A DNA stretch of 64,000 bases from Myxococcota bacterium (GTDB lineage: Bacteria; Myxococcota_A; UBA9160; JAFDDA01), in contig OZ245817.1 of NCBI GenBank assembly GCA_965228475.1, forward strand, positions 4,576,001 through 4,640,000, written 5' to 3'. The notes under the pieces were generated by a model. That model ran no database searches and was not told where the DNA came from. It saw only the letters and a list, made by a program, of their open reading frames with translations. A program made the position numbers and the translations under genes. Numbering within the stretch: position 1 is the first letter of the stretch; the number at the start of each line of letters is the position of its first letter. Below, in pieces: positions 47,016 through 62,877 of the stretch.

Positions 47016-48440
47016 TTGACTCGCCCCCCCGAGTTCTGGGACGCAATTCTTCGGCGCCTCACGCAAGACGTGCCGGCGCACGAAGTCGAGGCATGGATCC
47101 TTCCCCTCCACGCGGAAGCGGACGGGAAGACGCTGCGCCTCCTGTGTCCGAGTGCTCTCCACTGCAACCGCGTTCGCGACCGGTACCTCGAGCCGATCCG
47201 GCAGGCGGTGCGGCTCCACGCCGAAGAGGCGGGGGAGGACGCGCCCGTCGTGCGGCTGGCGCTCGCGGATTCGCCGCCGCCCGAGCGGCGGCTCGCGAAG
47301 GTCGAGCCGGACGAGGCGAACGTCCCGGAAGCCGGGGCCTCGGAGGCACCCGCGCGGGTCGCGGCGCGCGCGGGCCTGCGCGAGCCGGCGCCGCGCCGCA
47401 TGGCCCGCGCCGTCCAACAGAGTTTCGACAACTTCGTGGTCGGCCCGCCGAACGCGCTGGCGCGCGAAGCGGCCGTGGCGCTCGCGGCGGGCAGCCAGCG
47501 CGAGGTGAATCCCCTCTACCTGGCCGGCGATTCCGGCCTCGGGAAGACGCACCTGGCGCGCTCGGTCGCCGGTACCGTGCGCCGAACGGACGCGCGGGTC
47601 CTCTACACCTCGGCCGAGGGCTTCACCTCGGACTTCCTCGGCTCGCTGCGCAACCGCGAGGTTCCGCGCTTCAAACGCCGCTACCGCGAGGACTGCGACG
47701 TGCTGGTGCTCGAGGACGTCGACTTCCTCGGCGGGAAGGAATCCACCCAGCTCGAGCTGTTCCACACCGTGGCGCACCTGCTCGACACCGGTGCGCGCGT
47801 GGTCTTCACCGGCGCGCGGCTCCCGCGCGAGATCCCGGCGCTCGACCGCCGGCTCGGCGCCCAGATGGCGAGCGGCCTCGTCGCCGAGCTCGCGCCGCCG
47901 GACACGGAGCTCCGCCGCAGCATCCTGAAGAACCGCGCCGCCGCCGGCGGCATCCGCATCCCCGAAGACTGCGTCGAGCGCATCGTCGAAGCCGTCCGCG
48001 GCAGCGTGAGCGACCTCGAGAGCGTGCTCGGCCAGATCGTCGCCTCGGCCACGCTCCTGAAGCAGCCCGTCGATCTCGCGCTCACCGACGCGGCCCTGCG
48101 CAAGCTCGGCCCGGGCGAGAGCCGCACCCTCGGCAACCGGCGCGTGGCGCCGCGCGAGGTCATCGAGATGGTGGCCGCGTTCTTCGGCACGACGCCCGAG
48201 GCCCTCTGCTCCCGCTCACGCCGGCGCGACATCCTGCTCCCGCGCCAGCTCTCGATGTACCTGTGCCGCCGCTTCACGGACGCGAGCTTCTCGGAGATCG
48301 GCCGCGCCCTCGAGCGCGACCACCCCTCGGTACGGAACGCCGTCTCATCGGTCGAGCGCCAGATCCTCGAGCGCGCGCCGCTGCGCTACCAGGTCGAGGC
48401 CCTCTGCGACCGGCTCGAGCACCTGCGGGGCGAGCGCTAG
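47016..48440 (+). CDS. DnaA-like protein (probable paralogue, degenerate AAA+ residues)
   Basis: Domain I (WI.PL), FDNFVVG..N, NPLYLAGDSGLGKTHL, domain IV RQLSMYL...EIG..RDH; no dnaN downstream. Confidence 0.85.
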   Translation: MTRPPEFWDAILRRLTQDVPAHEVEAWILPLHAEADGKTLRLLCPSALHCNRVRDRYLEPIRQAVRLHAEEAGEDAPVVRLALADSPPPERRLAKVEPDEANVPEAGASEAPARVAARAGLREPAPRRMARAVQQSFDNFVVGPPNALAREAAVALAAGSQREVNPLYLAGDSGLGKTHLARSVAGTVRRTDARVLYTSAEGFTSDFLGSLRNREVPRFKRRYREDCDVLVLEDVDFLGGKESTQLELFHTVAHLLDTGARVVFTGARLPREIPALDRRLGAQMASGLVAELAPPDTELRRSILKNRAAAGGIRIPEDCVERIVEAVRGSVSDLESVLGQIVASATLLKQPVDLALTDAALRKLGPGESRTLGNRRVAPREVIEMVAAFFGTTPEALCSRSRRRDILLPRQLSMYLCRRFTDASFSEIGRALERDHPSVRNAVSSVERQILERAPLRYQVEALCDRLEHLRGER

Positions 48441-52994: not shown

Positions 52995-54724
52995 CGGGCT
53001 CGGTCGAGCACCCGGTAGCGCTCGCCGTCGATCAGGATGTCGCGGTGGGCCGGCTCGACCGCTTCGATGCGCCCTTCGCGCATGGCGTCGAAGAGTTCGA
53101 GGACACGCGGGGCGCGCGGTGCGTTCAGGCTTTCTCCGATGCGCTCGAAGCCTTCGTTCGTCTCCGCAAGCAGATGGAGCTGCGCCCAGTGCTCCGTGCC
53201 GATGGCGACGAGCCATTCGAGCGGGGGCTCGCCATCGTAGTCGAAGGGCGCCGCCTTGCAGAAGTTGTCGCCGCCACATCCGTGGCCGTGGCTCGCCTGG
53301 GCCATGTTGCGGATGGCAGCGTGGAGTCCTTCCGGCAAAGCCTTCTCCGTCAGGAACTCGAGCCCCTCGCTCCCGGGCCGCTCCTGGTTCCACTCCCAGT
53401 AGTTCGTGTGGAGCCGCGTGCGTTCCATCTGCGCGAGGATCTCGGCGTGCTCGGGGTGGCCGGTGAGACCGGCGAGCGCCTCGAAGCGCTCCGCACCCAC
53501 CTGGCCGAGCTGGAAGTAGAGCGTGCCGTAGTCGAACTCGGCGGCGCTGGCGCGGCCCTCGGCGAGGCGCGCGAACTGGCTGCGCGCGCTCAGCCCGAGC
53601 GGGTCGAGCCACGGCGTATGGGTCAGGAGGCCGAGCGCCACCGCGAGCAGCGCCACGAACAGGTTCACCGCACGGATCGCGCGCAGCCACGGCGTGCCGC
53701 GGCGGAGGACCGCCCCCGCGTAGCCGAAGGCGTAGGCCCCGAGCACGATCGTCGCGAGGGCCATCCACACCCGCTGGGGCGTGAGCCCGTATTGCCCGAT
53801 GCGCGCAGAGATGCCGTAGGCCGCGATCGCCGCGAAGACCGCCATGGCCAGGAGCGCCGCCTCGACGAGCCAGCGCATCGGCCCGGGCAGCCCGCCCTCG
53901 CGCTCGGAGCCGTCCTGATAGACCGCATTCAAGAAGAGCACCGTGAGCGCGACCCAGGTGAGCAGGAGCTGCGAGGCGTGGTTCGTATCCCAGAGCACGT
54001 CGAGCCCCGTGAAGGGGAGCACGGCCAGGAAGATCAGCGCGACGAAGGCCACGAGCGGCAGGAGCCCGCGGAAGACCGCGAGCGTGATGCCCCGCAGCGT
54101 CGAGACCACGCGCTCGCTCTCGCGCCCGAGCGCCACGCCGAAGCCGGCGGCCGCGCCCGTCACCACGGAGATGAAGCACGCCTTGCCGAACAGATCGCCG
54201 AAGAAATCGATGCCGACCAGCTCGAAGAGCGCGGCCCAGAGGAAGAGCACCGTCCAGAGCGCCGCGACGAACAGCGCGCCCACGAGGGCGACGAAGAAGT
54301 TGTTCCAGCCGTGGAGGAAGAGATCCTCGTAGGGGAAGTGCAGCCGCCCCGTGCGCTGGAAGATCTGGAGGAAGGGCCCGAGCACGTAGAGCGTCACGAG
54401 CGCTGCGATCACCCAGGTGGCGACGCGCTGCTGATCCTGCCGGTGGATCTCGAACTCGACGGGCACCACCCAGCCGACCCACCCGGCCGTCGCGGCGTAG
54501 ACGAGCCCCGTCCCGACCGCGAGCGCGACGAGCCGCCCGCGCGAAGCCCCGGACCAGACGAAGTGGAAGACCAGGCTCGAAACGGCAAGAAAGGAGAGAA
54601 GCGCGGCCGCGCCGGCGCGCGCCGCATGCTCGTCGGGCCAGGCCTCGGCCAGGACCCAGATGGCGAGGCCCTGCAGGCCGCCGGTGACGGCTAGCCACAG
54701 TCTGTCGCGCACGTCCTCGGGCAT
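52991..54724 (-). CDS. DUF4153 family membrane protein
   Basis: Many TM; LWTVLFLWAALFELVGI, RIGQYGLTPQR, DPLGLSARSQ. Confidence 0.8.
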   Translation of the reverse strand: MPEDVRDRLWLAVTGGLQGLAIWVLAEAWPDEHAARAGAAALLSFLAVSSLVFHFVWSGASRGRLVALAVGTGLVYAATAGWVGWVVPVEFEIHRQDQQRVATWVIAALVTLYVLGPFLQIFQRTGRLHFPYEDLFLHGWNNFFVALVGALFVAALWTVLFLWAALFELVGIDFFGDLFGKACFISVVTGAAAGFGVALGRESERVVSTLRGITLAVFRGLLPLVAFVALIFLAVLPFTGLDVLWDTNHASQLLLTWVALTVLFLNAVYQDGSEREGGLPGPMRWLVEAALLAMAVFAAIAAYGISARIGQYGLTPQRVWMALATIVLGAYAFGYAGAVLRRGTPWLRAIRAVNLFVALLAVALGLLTHTPWLDPLGLSARSQFARLAEGRASAAEFDYGTLYFQLGQVGAERFEALAGLTGHPEHAEILAQMERTRLHTNYWEWNQERPGSEGLEFLTEKALPEGLHAAIRNMAQASHGHGCGGDNFCKAAPFDYDGEPPLEWLVAIGTEHWAQLHLLAETNEGFERIGESLNAPRAPRVLELFDAMREGRIEAVEPAHRDILIDGERYRVLDRAR

Positions 54725-54736
54725 CCGTCTTGGATG

Positions 54737-55927
54737 CTACGCAATTCGGGAGATCGCGACGATGACCCACGCGACTCCGACGAGATGGAGACCTCCGAGA
54801 AGGAAGGCACTCACACCCACCCACTTCGGAGTGACCGCCATCGCGAGCTGCCCCGGGCGGATCAACGGCAATGCGATCAGGGCTCCAGACAAGAATCCGG
54901 CCAGGTGACCTGCAGTAGCGGCGTTCTCGATCACCCAATCCGTCATGGCAGCAAAGACGAGCACGTAGGCAAACATCCGCCACGGCAATCGCAAGGTGGC
55001 CGGGAGCTCTCGCCGGCGGAACACGTTGATCGACAGGAACGAGCCCATTGCGCCGAACACCGCCGCCGAAGCGCCCACAGCCGGCTGATCGGGATGGAGG
55101 AACGCCCAGCAGGACGCACCGACCAGCGAAGAGAACCCGAGGACGACGAGAAATCGTCGACTTCCGACTGCGTTCTCCAGCAGCATGCCGAGGGAGACCA
55201 GGGCGAAGAGGTTCCCCGCCAGATGGAGCGTCCCGACATGCAAGAGAACTCCGCTGAACAGCCGGACCCACTGACCCGCGGCGACTTCGTTCCCGATCAC
55301 GGATCCGAGCGGATCGAGAGCCCCCGCGTCTTCGAACCCACCTGAAAACCACATGGCCAAACCGATTCCCAGCAGAACGGAGGCGAGACAGAGGGTCACC
55401 AGCGGCGGGCTCGCTAGAGATCGGTCTGCGATCGTCGCTCGGTCCTCGAGAGACTCGGTCCAGCCGCCGGGAAGCCGTCGACGCACTTCCCGGTAGAACT
55501 CGCCCGCCCGTTCGACGGACCCGAACTGTCTGAAAGCGACTGCGATCGGCGCTCTCCCCGCTACCCCGATGCGAACCACGCGAGGCAACCGGTCGTGCCA
55601 CTCCAGACTGAAGATCTCGCCGAAAGGAACGATTCCCGTAACCCTCGACGCCGGATCTCGGAAGACGATTCCATCGCCATCGACGGCTACGCTCGACCCG
55701 TCCTGAAGCAGCCGCCGGATCTGACGGAGGGAGGCCCATCCGTTGACGATCGCCGCGGCGAGGTGGAGTAGTGCCCACACGAGGACGCGATCGGGATCGG
55801 CGAAGACTCCGATCGCCGTGACCGCCTGCCCCCCCATGCCGGCCGTAGCCGCCTCGATCTCGTAGCCGACGATCGACCCGTGCTTGAGTCGCCAGATCCC
55901 CCCTCCACTTCCAGCCGGGTCACTCAC
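54737..55927 (-). CDS. Rhomboid intramembrane serine protease with N-terminal extension
   Basis: QWVRLFS, LHVGTLHLAGN, VGASAA (catalytic Ser), GHLAGF (catalytic His); GTG start overlaps RHS stop (GTGA). Confidence 0.88.
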   Translation of the reverse strand: MSDPAGSGGGIWRLKHGSIVGYEIEAATAGMGGQAVTAIGVFADPDRVLVWALLHLAAAIVNGWASLRQIRRLLQDGSSVAVDGDGIVFRDPASRVTGIVPFGEIFSLEWHDRLPRVVRIGVAGRAPIAVAFRQFGSVERAGEFYREVRRRLPGGWTESLEDRATIADRSLASPPLVTLCLASVLLGIGLAMWFSGGFEDAGALDPLGSVIGNEVAAGQWVRLFSGVLLHVGTLHLAGNLFALVSLGMLLENAVGSRRFLVVLGFSSLVGASCWAFLHPDQPAVGASAAVFGAMGSFLSINVFRRRELPATLRLPWRMFAYVLVFAAMTDWVIENAATAGHLAGFLSGALIALPLIRPGQLAMAVTPKWVGVSAFLLGGLHLVGVAWVIVAISRIA

Positions 55928-58900
55928 TGGGACTCCGACCCCTTCGGACGTTGCCGCGACCTGCTCCGAGCAATCAGGATTGCAAGCAACAGCTGAAGCG
56001 GAAGCAACGTGGCAACGCTCTTCCATCCGGCCGGGACCCGGGTGATGGACTGAGGCGAACAGAACGCACCGGCCATGCCTGCGATCACCGCTGCGCTGAA
56101 GAAGGCGATGCTGACGCCGCTTAGCGTACTCGCCACGAGGAGAGCCCCGTACAAGCCGAGTCCCCAGCCCAACGCACCGAACCCGAAAGAGAAAGCAGTG
56201 AGAACTGCTGCGGCCCTCTCGGCGCTCCGGTCCGGATTCGTCCCCTCCGGATCCGAGAACCACACCGGGTTTCCCAGCGTGTAGGAGAACTGGTTCACGA
56301 GCTGGAAGATCGGGTCCGGGGAGAGGAAGCGGCCGGCGGCGGGGTCGTAGATGCGTTCGCCGAGGATCATGAGATCGCCGAACTCGGCGCGGCCGACGAA
56401 ACGGATCGGGTCGTCGCTGGCTCCGTGCACCGCGGCAACGCCGTAGCCGTCGTACTCGTAGTGGCTGCGGACCACTCCGGCGTGGTCCGTGGTGAACTTG
56501 ACGTTCCCCCGGAAGTCGAAGTGGCGGTACTGGTGCTGGCCGGTGATCAGGTCGATGCGAACGTCGCCGAGGTCCATGCTGACGGGAAGGCCGTAGGCGT
56601 CGGCCTGGACCGCTCCGCCGAAGCGGCGCTGCAGCGTGACGCCCGCCACGGTCGAGGAGACGAGCCGCCCGGTCATGTCCCAGGCGAGTTCGTCCAGACC
56701 GTGGGAAGCAAGGCGGCCGTGCGCCGTCCAGGTGATCGGGATGCCGCCGCGTTCGGTCACGAAGCCGGCTTCGTCGTACTGGTAGCTCCCGACACCTTCG
56801 GCATGGACCAGGCGGTTGCCTTCGGCGTTGTACGCCAGCGGGCCGCGCGGACTCTCGAGCAGGTTCGACTTGGCATCCAGGAAGTAGTTCCCGATGCTTC
56901 CGATCCCAGCGAGTTGGGGACCCGCCGCATTGGGACCTGGAGACGGTGCGAGGTAGTAGGCTTCCTCGGTCGCCACCTCGACGCCTCCGAAGGTCTGGGT
57001 CGTCGCCCCGACGAAGTCGAGCCCGAAGCCGATCCGGGTCAGGACCGTCGATTCGACGACGTCGCCGCCGGCATCGCGGGTCGAAGCCGAATCGAGGCCG
57101 CCGATGTCCGGCTGGTAGTCGAACTCGCGCGTGAGCCCGTTCCCGTAGCGGATCTCCGCGATTCGACCTTCCTCGTACCGACGCTCGACCAGCACCGAGC
57201 CTCCCTCGCGGATCTCGACCTCGCGGCCGGCGCCATCGTACGCACGGGTGACGTCCGCGACGACCTGGAAATCCGCCTCGACGTGGACTTCGCTCGTTCG
57301 GCGCGACCGCAGGTCGTGGCCGAAGACCGTGAAGGACCCGTCGCCGTGGGTGACGGCGCTCGTGCGCCCGGCGGCGTCGTAGGCGAACTGCTCCACCCTG
57401 CCTCCCATCGTGTCGTCGCTCGAGACGAGGAGACCGCCCTGCCAGGTCAGCGTCTGCGTTCCTTCGAGCGCACCGTCCCGCAGGGCTCTCACGAGGACCG
57501 GGCGTCCGTCGTCGTCGTAGACGGTCTCACGGCGCATCCCGTTCGGACGTTCCACGGCGGTCTCCCGCCCCATCGCGTCGTGGGTGAAGACGGTCGAGTG
57601 CCAGGAACCATCAGCGAACTCTCGGCGCTCGATCAGACGGCCGAAGGCGTCGTAGATCATCTCGTGATCGTCACCCGCATCGCGTGTGATGGCGGTCTGC
57701 TGACCGTCGGCCCGGACGTCGATCGCGATCACTCCGGTCTTCAGCTGCAGGGACCGGAGGTTGCGGTCGGCGTCGTAGCTACGAGTGACGACACCGCCCA
57801 CCTCCGGGCCACTCCCCCCGGTGCCACGGACGAGGTTCCCGACCTCGTCCCATTCGCTCTCGAGATCGAAGCCGTCGATCGTTACCACCGAGGCGTGGCC
57901 GTGCTCGCCGTAGTCCGAGTAGCTCGCCATGACACCGTCCGGGTCGGTCCGACTCGCGAGGTTCCCGTCGGCGTCGTAGGTGAAGGTCGTCGTCTCACCC
58001 GCTCCGTTCGCCCGGCTCGAGAGCCGCCCGGCTGCATCGTAGGTGCGGAGCTCCAAGAGACCCAACGCATCCAACGCCTGGAGCAACGGGCGGCGGTTCG
58101 GATCCTCGCGGTTCGCTGCGGTCGGTGCGTAGGTGTACTGGATCACGTTCCCCGAGGGCTCGGTCTCGGCTCGGACGTCGTCGTCGATCCACGTCCATGT
58201 GCGGACGGACCCATCGGGTTCGATACGCTGCACCGGCCGAACGCCGCTCCAGGCGATCTGCGTCCGGTCACCCGATCCGACGAGCAGGAGCTCCACCAAG
58301 CGCCGGCTCTCATCGAACGCGAAGCGCCGCTCCCCGCCGACGGCCGGGAAGTAGCGCGTGTGGTAGAGGCCGTCGCTCTTGCCCTGATACGAGAAGGTGT
58401 GGACGGCGTCGGGTGTCCCGACGAGCCGGACCTCGGTGACGCGGCCACCGGCCACGGCGATCTCCGTTCGCTCGCCGTCCGAGGTGGTCATGGCGGCGAG
58501 CTGGCCGCCCGCATATTCATAGGTGAAGCCGGGGCGCGACTCCGCGACATCGAGCCCATCGCGAGCGTTCACGAGTCGGTCTGCCGCGTTCCAGGCGAAT
58601 GCGGCCTGGCGCCCCGTCCGGTCGGTGACGGCGACCAGCCGTGCCGACGCGTCGTAGCCCAGATCGAAGAACGTCGAGCAGCTCGCGGGCGCCGAGCACT
58701 GATCGATGCGAAGGATGCGCGTCGTCCCGCCGACCCCGCCCGACACGTAGTGGAGTCGCGGATAGCTCGCGTCCGACCAATGCTCCGTTTCGAGCCGGCC
58801 GGCGGCATCGAACGTCCAGACGACTCCCCCCTTCGTTCGAATCCGGTTGGCGTCGAGCTTCACCCAATGCGTCCCCGGGATCGCGGCGCCGTCGGAGAGC

Positions 58901-59256
58901 GAGGAGACGTCGTGCGTGGCGCCCGAGGGGTCGAGAAAGCTCACGCCGTCGTAGCGAACGTCGAAGTTCCAGAGCCATGCCGCCGCGGCGGCGTCGTAGA
59001 CGGCGGCGATCTCCCGCGTTCCCAGGCGGGTGTCGATCGCCAGATCGACGCGGCGGATCGAGAGGTTCCCGCCGATCGTGTTCACCCGCATCAGCCCGAC
59101 TTCAACGATGGCGTCCTCCTGATATTCGTAGACACCGGCTCGCGGCGTCAGCGCGGGGTTGGGCGGCGGGCAACCGAGCATGGGAAGACAGAGAGCCTGA
59201 AGGATCGCCAGGGCCCGAACCTTCACCGAGTGGGTAGTCGTGCGCGTTCGATGCAT
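55924..59256 (-). CDS. RHS/YD-repeat protein with lipoprotein-like signal and hydrophobic C-terminal tip
   Basis: Numerous YD repeats (YDAAGRL, YDADGNL, YDAFGRL); core RIYDPAAGRFLSPDP..YTLGNPVWFSDPEG; N-terminal LCLPMLGC. Confidence 0.92.
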   Translation of the reverse strand: MHRTRTTTHSVKVRALAILQALCLPMLGCPPPNPALTPRAGVYEYQEDAIVEVGLMRVNTIGGNLSIRRVDLAIDTRLGTREIAAVYDAAAAAWLWNFDVRYDGVSFLDPSGATHDVSSLSDGAAIPGTHWVKLDANRIRTKGGVVWTFDAAGRLETEHWSDASYPRLHYVSGGVGGTTRILRIDQCSAPASCSTFFDLGYDASARLVAVTDRTGRQAAFAWNAADRLVNARDGLDVAESRPGFTYEYAGGQLAAMTTSDGERTEIAVAGGRVTEVRLVGTPDAVHTFSYQGKSDGLYHTRYFPAVGGERRFAFDESRRLVELLLVGSGDRTQIAWSGVRPVQRIEPDGSVRTWTWIDDDVRAETEPSGNVIQYTYAPTAANREDPNRRPLLQALDALGLLELRTYDAAGRLSSRANGAGETTTFTYDADGNLASRTDPDGVMASYSDYGEHGHASVVTIDGFDLESEWDEVGNLVRGTGGSGPEVGGVVTRSYDADRNLRSLQLKTGVIAIDVRADGQQTAITRDAGDDHEMIYDAFGRLIERREFADGSWHSTVFTHDAMGRETAVERPNGMRRETVYDDDGRPVLVRALRDGALEGTQTLTWQGGLLVSSDDTMGGRVEQFAYDAAGRTSAVTHGDGSFTVFGHDLRSRRTSEVHVEADFQVVADVTRAYDGAGREVEIREGGSVLVERRYEEGRIAEIRYGNGLTREFDYQPDIGGLDSASTRDAGGDVVESTVLTRIGFGLDFVGATTQTFGGVEVATEEAYYLAPSPGPNAAGPQLAGIGSIGNYFLDAKSNLLESPRGPLAYNAEGNRLVHAEGVGSYQYDEAGFVTERGGIPITWTAHGRLASHGLDELAWDMTGRLVSSTVAGVTLQRRFGGAVQADAYGLPVSMDLGDVRIDLITGQHQYRHFDFRGNVKFTTDHAGVVRSHYEYDGYGVAAVHGASDDPIRFVGRAEFGDLMILGERIYDPAAGRFLSPDPIFQLVNQFSYTLGNPVWFSDPEGTNPDRSAERAAAVLTAFSFGFGALGWGLGLYGALLVASTLSGVSIAFFSAAVIAGMAGAFCSPQSITRVPAGWKSVATLLPLQLLLAILIARSRSRQRPKGSESQ

Positions 59257-60112
59257 GGAGGATGCTCCGAGGGGACCGCGCGGGGTGGGAAAGAAAGGGT
59301 TCTGGCGAAGCCTTGCGCCGGGACAGCGCCGTCTGCGCGACGTGCAGGACGGACCAGAAGAGGTAGACAGCGGGCCCGAACACGAGGATCCGGAGCTCCT
59401 CGACGCGCGGCCCGGCCGCGAGAAGAGCCAGACCGACGGCGACGGGAACGGCGTGGGCGATGAAGAGCCTGCGCGCCGCCGTGCGCCCTCCTGCGGCATC
59501 GCCGGATCGCATTCTTGCCGTGGCTCTGCGAACCGAGAAGACCAGCCAGACGGCGACGTGGTACCCGGTCAGGACGGCGAAGGTATCGACGAAGGAGGGG
59601 CCAACGAACGGCATCGCGAGATCCGGGTAGACCGCCCTCACCTCTGGAGAGGAAACGGCCAGGAACGTGATCCCCGACGCACCCACGACGGCGATGCGAT
59701 GGCCCCGACGGTTCGCGGCGATCGGGGGCAGGCCTCCGATGGCCCCGCTCGACCGCTGAGACAGCTCGTTCTCGAGCACGTGCCAGTTCGAAACGGTGAG
59801 CAGCCCGAGTACCGGAAGCGGCGAAGCCAGGGCCGCCTGCCCGAATGCCTCCACCCCGGCCCCGTAGAACCCGAACACCACGGCGATGGAGGTCCAGACG
59901 AATGCCGTCCACAGGGCCCGCGGCGCACCTCCCGGGCGGGGGAAGACGGGCGGGGCGAACCATGCGGCGCCAAGAAGATGGCCGTAGCCGACCAACGTGA
60001 TGCAGAAGTAGACGTTCTCGGCGCGGCGAGGTGCATCCGGCCACAGGACGTGGGAGGCGGCCACGAAGGCGACGGGAACCGCCAACGCCAGGGCGCGATC
60101 AAACGATGCCAT
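59102..60112 (-). CDS. Uncharacterised polytopic membrane protein with TM histidines
   Basis: About 7-8 TM; GYGH, NWHVLEN, GYH..W, IAH, VLH; start overlaps the CPBP gene 3' end. Confidence 0.7.
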   Translation of the reverse strand: MASFDRALALAVPVAFVAASHVLWPDAPRRAENVYFCITLVGYGHLLGAAWFAPPVFPRPGGAPRALWTAFVWTSIAVVFGFYGAGVEAFGQAALASPLPVLGLLTVSNWHVLENELSQRSSGAIGGLPPIAANRRGHRIAVVGASGITFLAVSSPEVRAVYPDLAMPFVGPSFVDTFAVLTGYHVAVWLVFSVRRATARMRSGDAAGGRTAARRLFIAHAVPVAVGLALLAAGPRVEELRILVFGPAVYLFWSVLHVAQTALSRRKASPEPFLSHPARSPRSILHASNAHDYPLGEGSGPGDPSGSLSSHARLPAAQPRADAASRCLRISGGRHR

Positions 60113-60785
60113 GGAGGCGACCCTCCCCGCCGCGCTCCCATCGTGCGATCCGAGCGCCCTGCCATGCGAGCGACGCCGACCCGAGAACCAGGGATGGCGC
60201 GACCATGGCCTCGATCCCGACCAGAGCGGCCGCGTTGAGCCCCGCGTGGGCTGCCATGCAGAAGGCGACGCTCCGGGTGAACTCGTACGCGGCCGCGAGC
60301 CCGACGCCCACGAAGGCGGTGCCGAGCACGGGCCACGGCTCGCCGTGGGGAAGCGCGAAGAGGAGGGCGCTCGCGAGCAGGCGGAGAGGTAGCCCCCATC
60401 GCAACCCCCGCAGGGCTTCGAGGAGCCGTTCCCGGTAGAGGAGTTCTTCGAAGGCCGGCGCCAGGACGAGAACGGCGACGACCGTCGAAAAAGCAGGCGT
60501 CGCCGTCGGCGGCTCGAACGGCTCGAAGCCCATCGCTTCGCCAACCGCCGCGATCACGACCCCCCACCCGGCGTAGCCTGCTCCGCCGACGCAGAAGCCG
60601 GCCGCGACGGTCGACGGTCTCGGGAACATCATCGGTGCATCGCGTTCGAGCATCACGGCGCCGAGGATCAGCGCGAAGGCCGCCGCCGTCGCCGCGTCCC
60701 GGCCCTGCTCCGCGAGCATCGAGGTGACGGCCCACGGCACGGTCCACACGAGCAGGATCAGCGAGAGGAGACGGACCACGTCCAT
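60099..60785 (-). CDS. CPBP (CAAX protease type II/Abi) glutamic intramembrane protease
   Basis: APAFEELLYR, LFALPH, AHAGLN motifs. Confidence 0.88.
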   Translation of the reverse strand: MDVVRLLSLILLVWTVPWAVTSMLAEQGRDAATAAAFALILGAVMLERDAPMMFPRPSTVAAGFCVGGAGYAGWGVVIAAVGEAMGFEPFEPPTATPAFSTVVAVLVLAPAFEELLYRERLLEALRGLRWGLPLRLLASALLFALPHGEPWPVLGTAFVGVGLAAAYEFTRSVAFCMAAHAGLNAAALVGIEAMVAPSLVLGSASLAWQGARIARWERGGEGRLHGIV

Positions 60786-61462
60786 CCCCCACTGTGCCGG
60801 CACGACAGAACGATCCCTGCGACGACCCAGCCCGCAGCGGGAATCGCGGCGGAGACGGCCGGCGCCCCGAACGGCGGAATCGGCCGAAGCGGCTCGCTCG
60901 CGAGGCGGATGGCGCCGAGCCCGAAGAGAACGAGAGGGAGAAGCAAAGACGGGGCGACGTGTCGAAGAAGCGCATCGAGGCCCGCCGCCCCGGCGATCTC
61001 GACCGCCGCGGCCGAGACAAGATCCCCGGGGCGATGGCAACATCCCGCCACGAGACATCCCAGACGAGCGGTGGCAAAGGCGAGCGGAAGCGCGCCGAGG
61101 GCCGCCGCCGCGTACCGGCCCTGGAGTCCTCCCGTCCCCGCGACGCTCACCAGTACGCCGAGAGGGAGGAACACGATGGAGAACCCGGCGAGCGCTTCGG
61201 ACTCGAAAGCCCCGAGGTGGAGCGCGCGCCATCCGAGGTGCGCCGCGCACACGCCGAGCGCGAGGCCGGCGAAGAAGCGAGGCCCCTCCCCCGCCTCGCC
61301 GCCGCGCTCGAAGAAGCGCACGACCGCGACGGCGGACGCGCCCTGCCACAGCAAGAGCTGCATCATCCCGGCCTCGAAGAAGTCGAGCCGGGCGAAGACC
61401 CCGGCCAGAAGCACCAGGAGCCATGCCCGTGAGATTCGCAGCGAGGAAGTGCGTGCCCGCAT
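60758..61462 (-). CDS. Divergent prolipoprotein diacylglyceryl transferase (Lgt)-like protein (start may be 61366)
   Basis: ARLGCLVAGCCH (cf. GRxGCFxxGCC of Lgt-like proteins), RLASEPLR (cf. RFxxEFxR); multi-TM. Confidence 0.7.
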   Translation of the reverse strand: MRARTSSLRISRAWLLVLLAGVFARLDFFEAGMMQLLLWQGASAVAVVRFFERGGEAGEGPRFFAGLALGVCAAHLGWRALHLGAFESEALAGFSIVFLPLGVLVSVAGTGGLQGRYAAAALGALPLAFATARLGCLVAGCCHRPGDLVSAAAVEIAGAAGLDALLRHVAPSLLLPLVLFGLGAIRLASEPLRPIPPFGAPAVSAAIPAAGWVVAGIVLSCRHSGGWTWSVSSR

Positions 61463-61611
61463 CGTGAAGCGAGCCTATGGCGCCCGCTCCACGCGCGTCA
61501 GGTAGACGGGACGGACTTCTTCGCGCGCTTCGCTCTGCGATGGGCGCGCTCGAGCGGACTGTCACATGGCTTTCAGGGAAGGGTCACGAGCGTATCCGCG
61601 GGTTCACCGCG

Positions 61612-62877
61612 CTACTCGGTTCCCGCGATCGCCTCGTCGAGCGCCGCCGTGCGCGTGCGTGCGCCCTTGCCCTGTTTGCGCCAGCGCGCCGGGCCCGAGA
61701 GCTCGGGCTCGCGCACGGGCTCGAGGCTCGTCGGGTCCTTCTCCGGGTCGTCGAAGCGGGCGATCACGCCGTAGGTGGTGCTGCGCTCCACGGGCGTGCG
61801 GCCGACGGAGCGGATCAGCGCGCGCATCTCTTCCGCGGGGAAGTTCTCGCCGTGCTGGGAGCCGGATTCGCGGCTGATGGATTCTTCCATGAGCGTGCCG
61901 CCCATGTCGTTGGCGCCGGCGTCGAGGCACATGGCGCCGAGCTTCGGGCCCATCTTCACCCAGGAGACCTGGATGTTCGTGATCCACGGGCGCAGGAAGA
62001 GGCGGCCGACGGCGATCATGCGCAGGTCTTCCGCGGCCGTCGAGCCCGGGCGCGCGCCGAGGAAGTTGAAGAGCGTGTTCTTCTCGTGGATGAAGCCGAG
62101 GGGGACGAACTCGGTGAAGCCGCCCGTTTCTTTCTGGAGCTCGCGCAGGAGGCCCATGTGCTCGGCCACCTGGCGCGGGGTCTCGATGTGGCCGTACATG
62201 CAGGTGCTGCTCGAGCGCACGCCCGCGGCGTGGGCCGCGCGCACGATCTCGACCCAGCGCTCGCGCATGATCTTGTTCGGCGAGATCTGCTTGCGGACCG
62301 CGTCGTCGAGGATCTCGGCGGCGGTGCCGGGCATCGTGCCGAGGCCGGCCTCCTTCAGCCACGCGAAGACCTCGGCCAGCGGCATCCCGCTCTTGCGTTG
62401 GATGAAGTCGATCTCCTCGGGCGAGTAGGCGTGGATGTGGAGCTTCGGGAACTCGGCCTTGATGGCGCGCAGCACCTCCACGTAGTGCTCGGCGGTCTTG
62501 CGCGGGTCGATGCCGGCCTGGATGCAGACCTCGCTCGCGCCGCGGGCCACGGCATCCCGGCACTTCTCGAGGATCACCTCGTGCGGGTGATCGTAGGCGT
62601 CGGCCTCCTCGCGGTGGCGCGAGAAGCCGCAGAAGGAGCAGCCGACGTAGCAGACGTTGGTGAAGTTGATGTTGCGGCAGACGACGTAGGAGACGTCGTC
62701 GCCCGAGTCGTCCTGGCGGGCGAGATCCGCCGCGCGGGCGAGCCAGTGGAGGTCGGCGCCTTCGGCGCGCAGGAGGCGTTCGGCTTCGTCGGTCGAGAGC
62801 TCGCGGCCCTCGAGGGCGCGGTCGAGGATGGTGCGGACGTCCGGCGAGACGCCGCCGAGCAGGCGTTCGAGACTCAT
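61612..62877 (-). CDS. cofH: FO synthase subunit CofH (radical SAM)
   Basis: RNINFTNVCYVGCSFC, PGTAAEILDD, GGFTEFVPL, NIQVSWVK, GANDMGGTLMEESISR. Confidence 0.92.
   Translation of the reverse strand: MSLERLLGGVSPDVRTILDRALEGRELSTDEAERLLRAEGADLHWLARAADLARQDDSGDDVSYVVCRNINFTNVCYVGCSFCGFSRHREEADAYDHPHEVILEKCRDAVARGASEVCIQAGIDPRKTAEHYVEVLRAIKAEFPKLHIHAYSPEEIDFIQRKSGMPLAEVFAWLKEAGLGTMPGTAAEILDDAVRKQISPNKIMRERWVEIVRAAHAAGVRSSSTCMYGHIETPRQVAEHMGLLRELQKETGGFTEFVPLGFIHEKNTLFNFLGARPGSTAAEDLRMIAVGRLFLRPWITNIQVSWVKMGPKLGAMCLDAGANDMGGTLMEESISRESGSQHGENFPAEEMRALIRSVGRTPVERSTTYGVIARFDDPEKDPTSLEPVREPELSGPARWRKQGKGARTRTAALDEAIAGTE

Follow-up and report, generated by a model that had tools for sequence, protein, structure and literature searches.

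Do the genes around an RHS protein act together, and if so, on which part of it? The question is raised by a 64,000-nucleotide stretch of a Myxococcota bacterium genome (assembly GCA_965228475.1, contig OZ245817.1, positions 4,576,001 to 4,640,000; here "the window"), where an RHS gene stands in a row of overlapping genes for an Lgt-like membrane protein, a CPBP protease, a histidine-rich (His-rich) membrane protein and a rhomboid protease. An earlier note, made from the sequence alone, had proposed that these five genes are a self-contained module, independent of type VI secretion (the T6SS), that lipidates, cleaves and anchors or releases the RHS protein. The T6SS-independent grouping of the RHS, Lgt-like, CPBP and His-rich proteins stood up to analysis; the rhomboid as a core member and the N-terminal lipobox as the target did not. 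The unit consists of four genes, not five. It is highly probable that these four form a dedicated sorting module, and the full explanation that we favour as probable is C-terminal sorting of a single RHS client, similar to that by myxosortase or MrtJ, with a lipid transferase of its own.

A cysteine tag at the RHS C-terminus and the genes that track it

The last 45 residues of the RHS protein make up a tripartite tag with a C[SA]P motif, a spacer, a transmembrane helix containing Gln or Asn, and an Arg cluster. Here these are Cys1066-Ser-Pro, a spacer of 11 residues, a helix at residues 1078–1096 with Gln1088, and Arg residues from 1097. The earlier note had named C-terminal sorting (CTERM) signals as background and overlooked this tag; the "purely hydrophobic tip" that it described after DPEG is in fact a hydrophobic payload of 60 residues plus the Cys-helix-Arg tag. 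Among 41 tagged tails, 40 carry C[SAT]P and the remaining one CHG; the helix Gln or Asn was recognised in 37 by pattern and in 39 by eye, and the tag Cys is invariant in all 38 aligned tags. In the window genome, no protein other than the RHS protein carries the C[SA]P tag. Moreover, a search with a tag profile, in which 150 candidates were scored per genome, retrieved the RHS protein alone in four of five tagged genomes and three copies in the fifth (G008), and gave no match better than E 1e-3 in five genomes lacking the strict tag. The extra tagged C-termini of G008 lie near contig ends (L168:1-456 on G008:C62; L083:11039-11320 on G008:C46). One is followed by a rhomboid gene, the other by a small membrane gene and then by His-rich, Lgt-like and CPBP genes; either may be an orphan tip cassette or a further copy of the RHS gene.

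None of the CTERM models in NCBIfam recognises the C[SA]P tag in the 38 aligned sequences. The JDVT-CTERM model matched three of them (best E 0.46), the MYXO-CTERM models one at E 0.71 and one at E 2.7, and NF058595 ("lipo-invert") one at E 0.03, with nothing above its 37-bit cut-off in the window genome; the DP motif that JDVT-type tails have nine residues past the Cys is missing from the tag consensus. The tests against CTERM, myxosortase and rhombosortase models that had been suggested beforehand thus left the tag and the proteases below every cut-off tested. In addition, CGLGxE tails are found on about 18 unrelated proteins of the window genome (19 matches, one of them an evident false open reading frame (ORF)). 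These are large proteins ending in CG[LVF]GxE, a transmembrane helix and Arg (for example G000:C1 961084-963915, 4105287-4111091 and 2832522-2837036), and this tail is apparently the housekeeping Cys-CTERM of the lineage. Six RHS proteins with CGLGxE tails likewise gave no CTERM model match.

An RHS orthologue is present in 78 of the 146 genomes of the order (UBA9160, Myxococcota), almost always in a single copy. By genome, the tails were classified as C[SAT]P in 41, CGLGxE in 11, other Cys tails in three, no tail in 20, variants in three and truncated in two. The variant tails read CAGP or CGGAP (L125, L129 and L133, on G142:C22, G099:C4 and G143:C115); at two of these three loci a CPBP gene lies directly downstream and an Lgt-like gene was not found.

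Profiles of the Lgt-like, CPBP and His-rich proteins were made from an initial 61 genomes and applied to all 146. Six-frame ORFs were searched because a codon-based gene caller had missed genes of low GC content at third codon positions (GC3), including the His-rich and rhomboid genes of the window. Scoring was stricter for the His-rich protein, whose counts are lower bounds. As a result, the Lgt-like, CPBP and His-rich genes were found in 40, 38 and 32 of the 41 tagged genomes, versus 0, 0 and 1 of the 34 genomes with another tail or none. In the held-out genomes, the corresponding figures were 23, 22 and 17 of 23 tagged, and 0, 0 and 1 of 17 with other or no tail. In G144 (88% complete), all three partner genes are present and the RHS search gave no match. 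In a phylum-wide sample of 251 genomes, the Lgt-like profile gave only three weak matches outside the order, at about E 1e-16, near the level of ordinary Lgt.

Because related genomes are not independent, we also made contrasts on a tree of the RHS core, which kept 77 of 84 rows; those left out were three truncated or then-undetermined tails, three variant tails and the second RHS copy in G026, and nine RHS fragments lacking the core end were never in the tree. The tag state changes at least 10 times on this tree. Seven independent pairs on supported branches agree for the Lgt-like and CPBP genes (mean 6.9 same, 0 opposite; median p 0.016), and the same contrast for the His-rich gene gave p 0.03.

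Conserved synteny, whose absence the earlier note would have taken as a sign of chance accretion, was observed. Among loci that extend for 4 kb or more to each side of the RHS gene, a partner gene lies within 4 kb of it in 22 of 26 tagged cases, versus 0 of 22 with another tail or none; the partners are CPBP in 22, His-rich in 15 and Lgt-like in 14. Gene order and strand vary widely between loci, and the co-occurrence holds even when the genes are unlinked. Fusions were found as well: Lgt-like with CPBP in P0154, and CPBP with His-rich in four clusters among 150 listed matches (P0049, P0050, P0093 and P0142). In G133, the Lgt-like and CPBP genes share one open frame, a weaker case in a genome where the RHS gene is also frameshifted. 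A single-protein scan for related loci yielded 3 loci.

The N-terminal Cys behaves differently. It is present in 33/33 tagged and 27/27 untagged RHS proteins with a locatable N-terminus, scored with a loose window. Being common to both groups, it cannot explain the pattern; the Lgt-like gene tracks the C-terminal Cys. The idea of a private lipid transferase for the N-terminal lipobox is therefore not supported, and the window genome has three further, ordinary-scoring Lgt genes.

Proteins of the locus

The window Lgt-like protein has no Pfam match of its own, and PF01790 is matched by 12 of 19 orthologues. When the family profile was compared with the PDB, E. coli Lgt was the only match (E 1.3e-8). 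The structure model (pLDDT 87) also finds E. coli Lgt first (5AZC; Z 11.8, rmsd 4.0, 199 residues aligned), ahead of a next match at Z 6.2; Foldseek alone gave E 5.8e-3. Judged by profile and model, the protein has the Lgt fold and is homologous to Lgt. The family is about 200 residues in size, and the gene probably starts at ATG 61366/61363, because the homologues begin there. Residues R133, R186, E190 and R193 correspond to R143, R239, E243 and R246 of E. coli Lgt, and the equivalents of R143, R239 and R246 are kept in 33/36, 34/35 and 33/35 family members; that of G145 is also present. Three cysteines (C136, C141 and C142) are invariant in all 36 members. The position of N146 is Cys in the family, as in the housekeeping Lgt of the same genome, and the Cys-Cys pair falls at E151/L152 of E. 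coli Lgt.

In E. coli Lgt, the essential residues are Y26, H103, R143, N146, G154 and R239, with Y26 and H103 called absolutely required; R143 and R239 are assigned to the phosphate of phosphatidylglycerol, and a role in positioning the protein substrate is suggested for H103 (PMC13251419; statements on cited papers refer here and below to the part of their text that was available). Other Lgt proteins have Y, W or F in place of H103 and C in place of N146, and a disulfide has been proposed for L. interrogans Lgt (PMC13251419). Since the R143 and R239 equivalents are retained while the H103 motif is absent, the lipid-donor side would seem to be kept and the peptide side rebuilt. The protein is not a canonical Lgt and may still work like one. 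One Lgt paralogue (SSFGG and GCGLLHDH motifs) lies about 140 bp after the gene of a 922-residue CGFGPE-tailed protein (G000:C1:4438456-4442136, plus strand), itself preceded by a protein with a VPEP-type tail; this neighbourhood is possibly another link between Lgt and Cys tails. A third, similar Lgt is at G000:C1 2275059-2275826.

The CPBP protein belongs to PF02517 (E 1e-15) and has the motifs E113-E114-xxx-R118, F143-xxx-H147 and H180-xxx-N184; EExxxR, FxxxH and HxxxN are all intact in 42 of 42 subfamily members. It scored 28.5 bits against the MrtJ model (cut-off 75), and four of 15 subfamily members matched Mrt_core, with a best E of 1.8e-6 that is below membership. Five other CPBP proteins are encoded in the window genome.

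The His-rich protein is conserved at H45, H111, E114, N115, H185, H220, H257 and R265, its five His being near-invariant, and it likely carries a metal site. The family is closed, with 240 clusters at E ≤0.001 among 1.8 billion representatives. No Pfam family was found in more than two of 134 members, and no match among PDB sequences. The model (pLDDT 93.8) gave at best generic 7-helix receptors (Z 6.1; Foldseek best E 0.33), the ESM Atlas only unnamed matches below 0.9, and the profile no similarity to the CPBP and Lgt-like alignments. A suspected link to Brp/Blh carotene dioxygenase (PF15461) received no clear support: TIGR03753 was matched by one of 134 members (E 1.6e-4), and the profile-profile probability was 2.5% over 26 columns. 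In P0126, the domain is fused to a C-terminal region that by eye resembles an alpha/beta-hydrolase (GxSxG), which may hint at a role in lipid remodelling or be a read-through. In G094, a His-family gene (L144, G094:C6:370612-371361) follows a HAD-like hydrolase gene, and no CPBP, Lgt-like or tagged RHS gene was found in that genome.

The RHS protein matches PF05593 and TIGR03696, with YD repeats and an RHS-associated core. Both autoprotease aspartates, D981 and D1002, are invariant in 30 of 30 aligned orthologues, and the DPEG codons lie at 56253-56242. The lipobox-like N-terminal signal reported before was confirmed, with the Cys29 codon at 59172-59170; Cys occupies this position in 28 of 30 aligned orthologues, and the basic, hydrophobic and Cys pattern, as judged from sequence, is conserved among them. 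The payload after DPxG measures 55–156 residues in tagged proteins and is alike only between close kin. It has a hydrophobic stretch of helix length in 37 of 41 tagged proteins and is equally hydrophobic in 21 of 22 tail-less ones; a minority look beta-stranded (L074, L124, L121 and L069, in G044, G089, G096:C237 and G011). The payload probably acts as an antibacterial toxin. The reported absence of a PAAR/VgrG adaptor extends to the whole genome, where PAAR, VipB and Phage_GPD/VgrG found no match (PF05943, PF05488 and PF05954 as T6SS markers: 0 matches in a single-contig, 96% complete genome), and export or display of the RHS protein would be independent of T6SS. A second RHS frame of 3159 codons, at G000:C1:389466-398945 (plus strand), has a lipoprotein-type N-terminus and a C-terminal domain without the tag.

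The rhomboid (PF01694, E 7e-24) is intact, as are GxS and His in all 15 rhomboids aligned, and it is optional in the module. A rhomboid gene directly follows the RHS gene at 11 of the 37 other tagged loci, at 2 of 11 with a CGLGxE tail and at none of 19 without a tail. The protein scored 40.4 bits against the rhombosortase model TIGR03902 (cut-off 84) and has an unlinked paralogue at G000:C1:3399631-3401085 (minus strand, E 5e-56). These figures speak against its proposed role as a second core sorting protease. At about 40 of 83 loci, assessed by eye, a small variable hydrophobic ORF follows the RHS gene, often overlapping its stop codon, and at 13 the rhomboid does. The best non-rhomboid matches of a profile of the rhomboid N-terminal domain were such downstream ORFs (E 2.4e-4 in G069, others E 0.05–1.2). 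This gives a faint indication that the slot after the RHS gene holds immunity genes, the rhomboid being one of its occupants.

The layout of the locus agreed with the earlier description in all coordinates (Table 1). The minus-strand ORFs encode 234 (Lgt-like), 228 (CPBP), 336 (His-rich), 1110 (RHS) and 396 (rhomboid) residues, overlap in this order by 28, 14, 155 and 4 bp, and are followed 12 bp later by DUF4153, which did not recur among 55 related loci. The 155-bp overlap arises from a non-conserved tail of the His-rich ORF, whose conserved domain stops near R265. The lower GC3 noted before was also borne out: it is 0.82, 0.86, 0.78, 0.85 and 0.75 for the five genes in order, which places them at the 1st–13th percentile among 3483 ORFs of the genome (median 0.93), versus 0.95 for cofH, 0.96 for amn and 0.93 for DUF4153. 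The genome is a single contig of 5.0 Mb, and positions 54500-61700 are spanned with zero differences by contigs of two public runs, which are possibly the source of the assembly. A second low-GC3 insert lies near the module, between a DnaA-like gene (47070-48440) and amn: a 1048-residue minus-strand ORF (window:48477-51623, GC3 0.76) that by eye is transglutaminase-like/DUF3857 with TPR repeats.

Table 1. Features of the RHS locus, in positions of the window
Feature	Position	Strand	Basis
Divergent Lgt-fold membrane protein, candidate lipid transferase for the tag Cys	60758..61462	-	orthologue profiles, structure model
CPBP/Rce1-type glutamic intramembrane protease, candidate cognate sorting protease	60099..60785	-	PF02517, motifs
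Multi-helix His-rich membrane protein (conserved residues 1-266 = 60112-59315)	59102..60112	-	alignment
RHS/YD-shell protein, 1110 aa	55924..59256	-	PF05593/TIGR03696
N-terminal lipoprotein-type signal peptide ending at Cys29	59170..59256	-	sequence and conservation
RHS autoprotease aspartates D981, D1002 (DPEG)	56242..56316	-	alignment
Polymorphic hydrophobic payload, residues 1006-1065, putative membrane-active cargo	56062..56241	-	sequence
C-terminal sorting tag from Cys1066	55927..56061	-	tail alignment
Rhomboid protease (S287, H341), N-terminal membrane and small soluble domain	54737..55927	-	PF01694

A possible pathway and its rivals

In the pathway that we favour, the RHS protein would be exported by Sec through its N-terminal lipoprotein signal, served by a housekeeping Lgt. 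The tag helix, to judge by its architecture, would stop transfer and hold the C-terminus in the inner membrane with the Arg residues inside and the Cys outside. The Lgt paralogue, whose fold and co-distribution are described above, would then put a lipid on the tag Cys, most likely diacylglyceryl from phosphatidylglycerol; we incline, with modest conviction, to the view that this protein itself lipidates the Cys. The cognate CPBP, with its motifs intact, would cut just past the modified Cys and take off the helix, by analogy with MrtX and Rce1. A type II secretion system (T2SS) could carry the folded protein to the surface. GspD and GspE models score above cut-off in the window genome, and they were used as markers because PF03934 (GspK) was unspecific in control genomes and its match was set aside. 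The order of lipidation, cleavage and T2SS is as proposed in PMC11980579, whose acyl-transferase "remains unidentified". Self-cleavage of the shell after the DPxG motif would leave a short hydrophobic payload ending in a lipidated Cys, which probably acts on membranes of neighbouring cells. The His-rich protein could perhaps be an accessory membrane metalloenzyme that remodels the anchor, and the gene after the RHS gene, here the rhomboid, would most likely give payload-specific self-protection. A bolder version, which we offer only tentatively and hold to be doubtful, is a mirror image of the lipoprotein pathway, with the Lgt paralogue serving a C-terminal Cys, the CPBP standing in for LspA and the His-metal enzyme tailoring the anchor; an RHS protein anchored at both ends would then deploy a C-terminally lipidated, membrane-active peptide as a T6SS-free contact weapon.

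Several observations weigh against this pathway. MrtX cleaves its tag in E. coli (PMC11980579), which favours an ordinary Lgt as the lipidating enzyme; none of the 11 genomes with a CGLGxE-tailed RHS protein has this Lgt-like gene; and G099 and G142 combine a variant Cys tail with an adjacent CPBP gene and no detected Lgt-like gene. It is chiefly these observations that argue against the Lgt-like protein being strictly required. In addition, G143 has a variant tail and none of the three partner genes, the tagged G045 has the His-rich gene only (85% complete, 420 contigs), G094 has it without a tag, and the Lgt-like gene is within 4 kb of the RHS gene in only 14 of 26 tagged loci. The tree was made by FastTree, and a shorter alignment supports only five pairs (p 0.06). 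The Lgt-like family is without Y26, H103-GG (L-F-V-P instead) and the head domain, and the window copy is more degenerate than the family, with a degenerate HPT motif and Arg144 at the G154 equivalent, which is Gly in 29/35. In one family, the RHS gene of several tagged loci is not followed by any gene on its own strand, and these loci thus have no obvious immunity gene. Moreover, the model does not explain how a payload enclosed in the shell stays joined to a tag in the membrane.

Some of these points could be accommodated if the module is the same but its chemistry differs: the CPBP would cut, the Lgt-fold protein would be a substrate-presenting subunit or an S-acyl transferase acting through its Cys-Cys pair, and a housekeeping Lgt, or nothing, would supply the lipid. 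The lost residues, the three invariant cysteines, the two variant-tag loci with CPBP and no detected Lgt-like gene, the functioning of MrtX in E. coli (PMC11980579) and the three other Lgt genes of the window genome suit this view. We nevertheless consider it rather unlikely, in light of the near-complete retention of the R143, R239 and R246 equivalents. Replacement of H103 and N146 also occurs in other Lgt proteins (PMC13251419), the housekeeping Lgt here shares the Cys at N146, and the cysteines are more simply explained by a disulfide, as proposed for L. interrogans Lgt. It is improbable that the CPBP, His-rich and rhomboid proteins instead neutralise the payload in the producer's membrane, the Cys tail being a mere anchor. 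CPBP genes have been suggested as bacteriocin immunity genes (Haft, bioRxiv 10.1101/2023.06.07.544157), the CPBP-fold LnsB is not a protease (PMC7387801), most tagged payloads are hydrophobic, and a CPBP gene directly follows the RHS gene in G099, in G142 and at one G096 locus. However, the payloads of tail-less RHS proteins are as hydrophobic, yet none of these comes with CPBP or Lgt-like genes; the genes follow the conserved tag and not the variable payload, and at many loci the immunity slot is taken by another, small membrane gene. Self-protection suits the rhomboid better than the other three genes.

The originally proposed version, with five genes as one unit, lipidation of the N-terminal Cys by the Lgt-like protein, the rhomboid as a rhombosortase and both proteases releasing or anchoring the cargo, appears very improbable. 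It agrees with the five overlapping low-GC3 genes, the conserved N-terminal Cys, the intact rhomboid active sites and the Gly-rich stretches before many tags. Against it, the same N-terminal Cys is found in all 27 RHS proteins with a locatable N-terminus in genomes that lack the module, and the rhomboid is missing at 26 of 37 tagged loci, present at CGLGxE loci and below the rhombosortase cut-off. Finally, low GC3 suggests a mobile origin and kin share genes, so chance accretion or plain co-inheritance on an island had to be weighed; it is extremely improbable, given co-occurrence even when unlinked and in many gene orders, its recurrence in held-out genomes, and the fusions. Chance accretion has already been largely refuted by the tree contrasts, synteny counts and genome profiles.

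Relation to known systems and meaning

The general marks of such sorting systems are present, namely a tripartite Cys tail and a co-occurring PF02517 protease with all motifs, as are those of RHS polymorphic toxins: YD repeats, a core with two catalytic Asp and a variable C-terminal domain. The JDVT-CTERM/MrtJ system (Haft, bioRxiv 10.1101/2023.06.07.544157) is alike in having one client per genome, a single invariant Cys, a motif-helix-Arg tail with a conserved helix residue and a CPBP gene adjoining the client. It differs in that the motif here is C[SA]P...Q/N and not DP, NF033191 and NF033192 stay below cut-off, and the RHS protein is the client; reports of JDVT concern beta- and gammaproteobacteria, and the available text describes no Lgt-like or His-rich partner. 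With MYXO-CTERM/MrtX (PMC11980579), the module shares a tripartite Cys tail, a CPBP protease, T2SS and a proposed Lgt-like lipidation before cleavage. MrtX, however, is a housekeeping enzyme with dozens of unlinked clients, whereas a private tag and a travelling Lgt paralogue are found here; tag and CPBP do not qualify for the MYXO-CTERM and myxosortase models (TIGR03901, TIGR03382 and NF040914), and there is one client only. The CGLGxE tails of the window genome look like the counterpart of the MYXO-CTERM housekeeping tags.

The family shares the fold and R143, G145, R239, E243 and R246 with Lgt (PDB 5AZB/5AZC; PMC13251419), lacks Y26, H103-GG and the head domain and, unlike Lgt, is co-distributed with a C-terminal, inverted Cys. 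The YD shell, aspartyl autoprotease and variable C-terminal domain are shared with Tse5 (PMC10684867) and bacterial teneurin-like proteins (TLPs; PMC13018210). The payloads of Tse5 and of BiTLP, a Bacillus TLP, act on membranes (PMC10684867, PMC13018210), and for myxococcal TLPs lipoprotein signals are predicted, immunity genes lie downstream and, in the available text, no delivery machinery is known (PMC13018210). The RHS protein here is without PAAR/VgrG, unlike Tse5, and about half the chain length of TLPs; a sorting tag after the payload is not described for either in the available parts of these papers. NF058595, compared by name and model score, is called a "lipo-invert putative C-terminal anchoring domain". 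Going by this name, the model would describe an anchor like that of lipoproteins, inverted and at the C-terminus, and curators would seem to have a similar idea for another family. Literature searches gave no description of the present system and none of NF058595; Fig. S8 of PMC13251419, which covers divergent Lgt proteins including Myxococcales, may bear on novelty. New here are the tag, the subfamily of the CPBP, the linkage of an Lgt paralogue, the His-rich family and a client that is an RHS protein bearing a lipid-type signal at each end.

Genome profiles, gene neighbourhoods and fusions thus connect an Lgt-fold gene with one CPBP and one short tag, and this gene is a candidate for the lipidating enzyme that the myxosortase model needs and that the available text of PMC11980579 calls unidentified. 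The question of tail-Cys lipidation narrows to a three-component test in E. coli. If the proposed pathway is true, Lgt-fold enzymes would be able to act on an inverted C-terminal Cys, paralleling in bacteria the prenylation of CAAX proteins and their subsequent cleavage by Rce1; RHS proteins lacking T6SS adaptors would have a route of export and display; and the histidine-rich membrane proteins, a new family, would gain a functional context.

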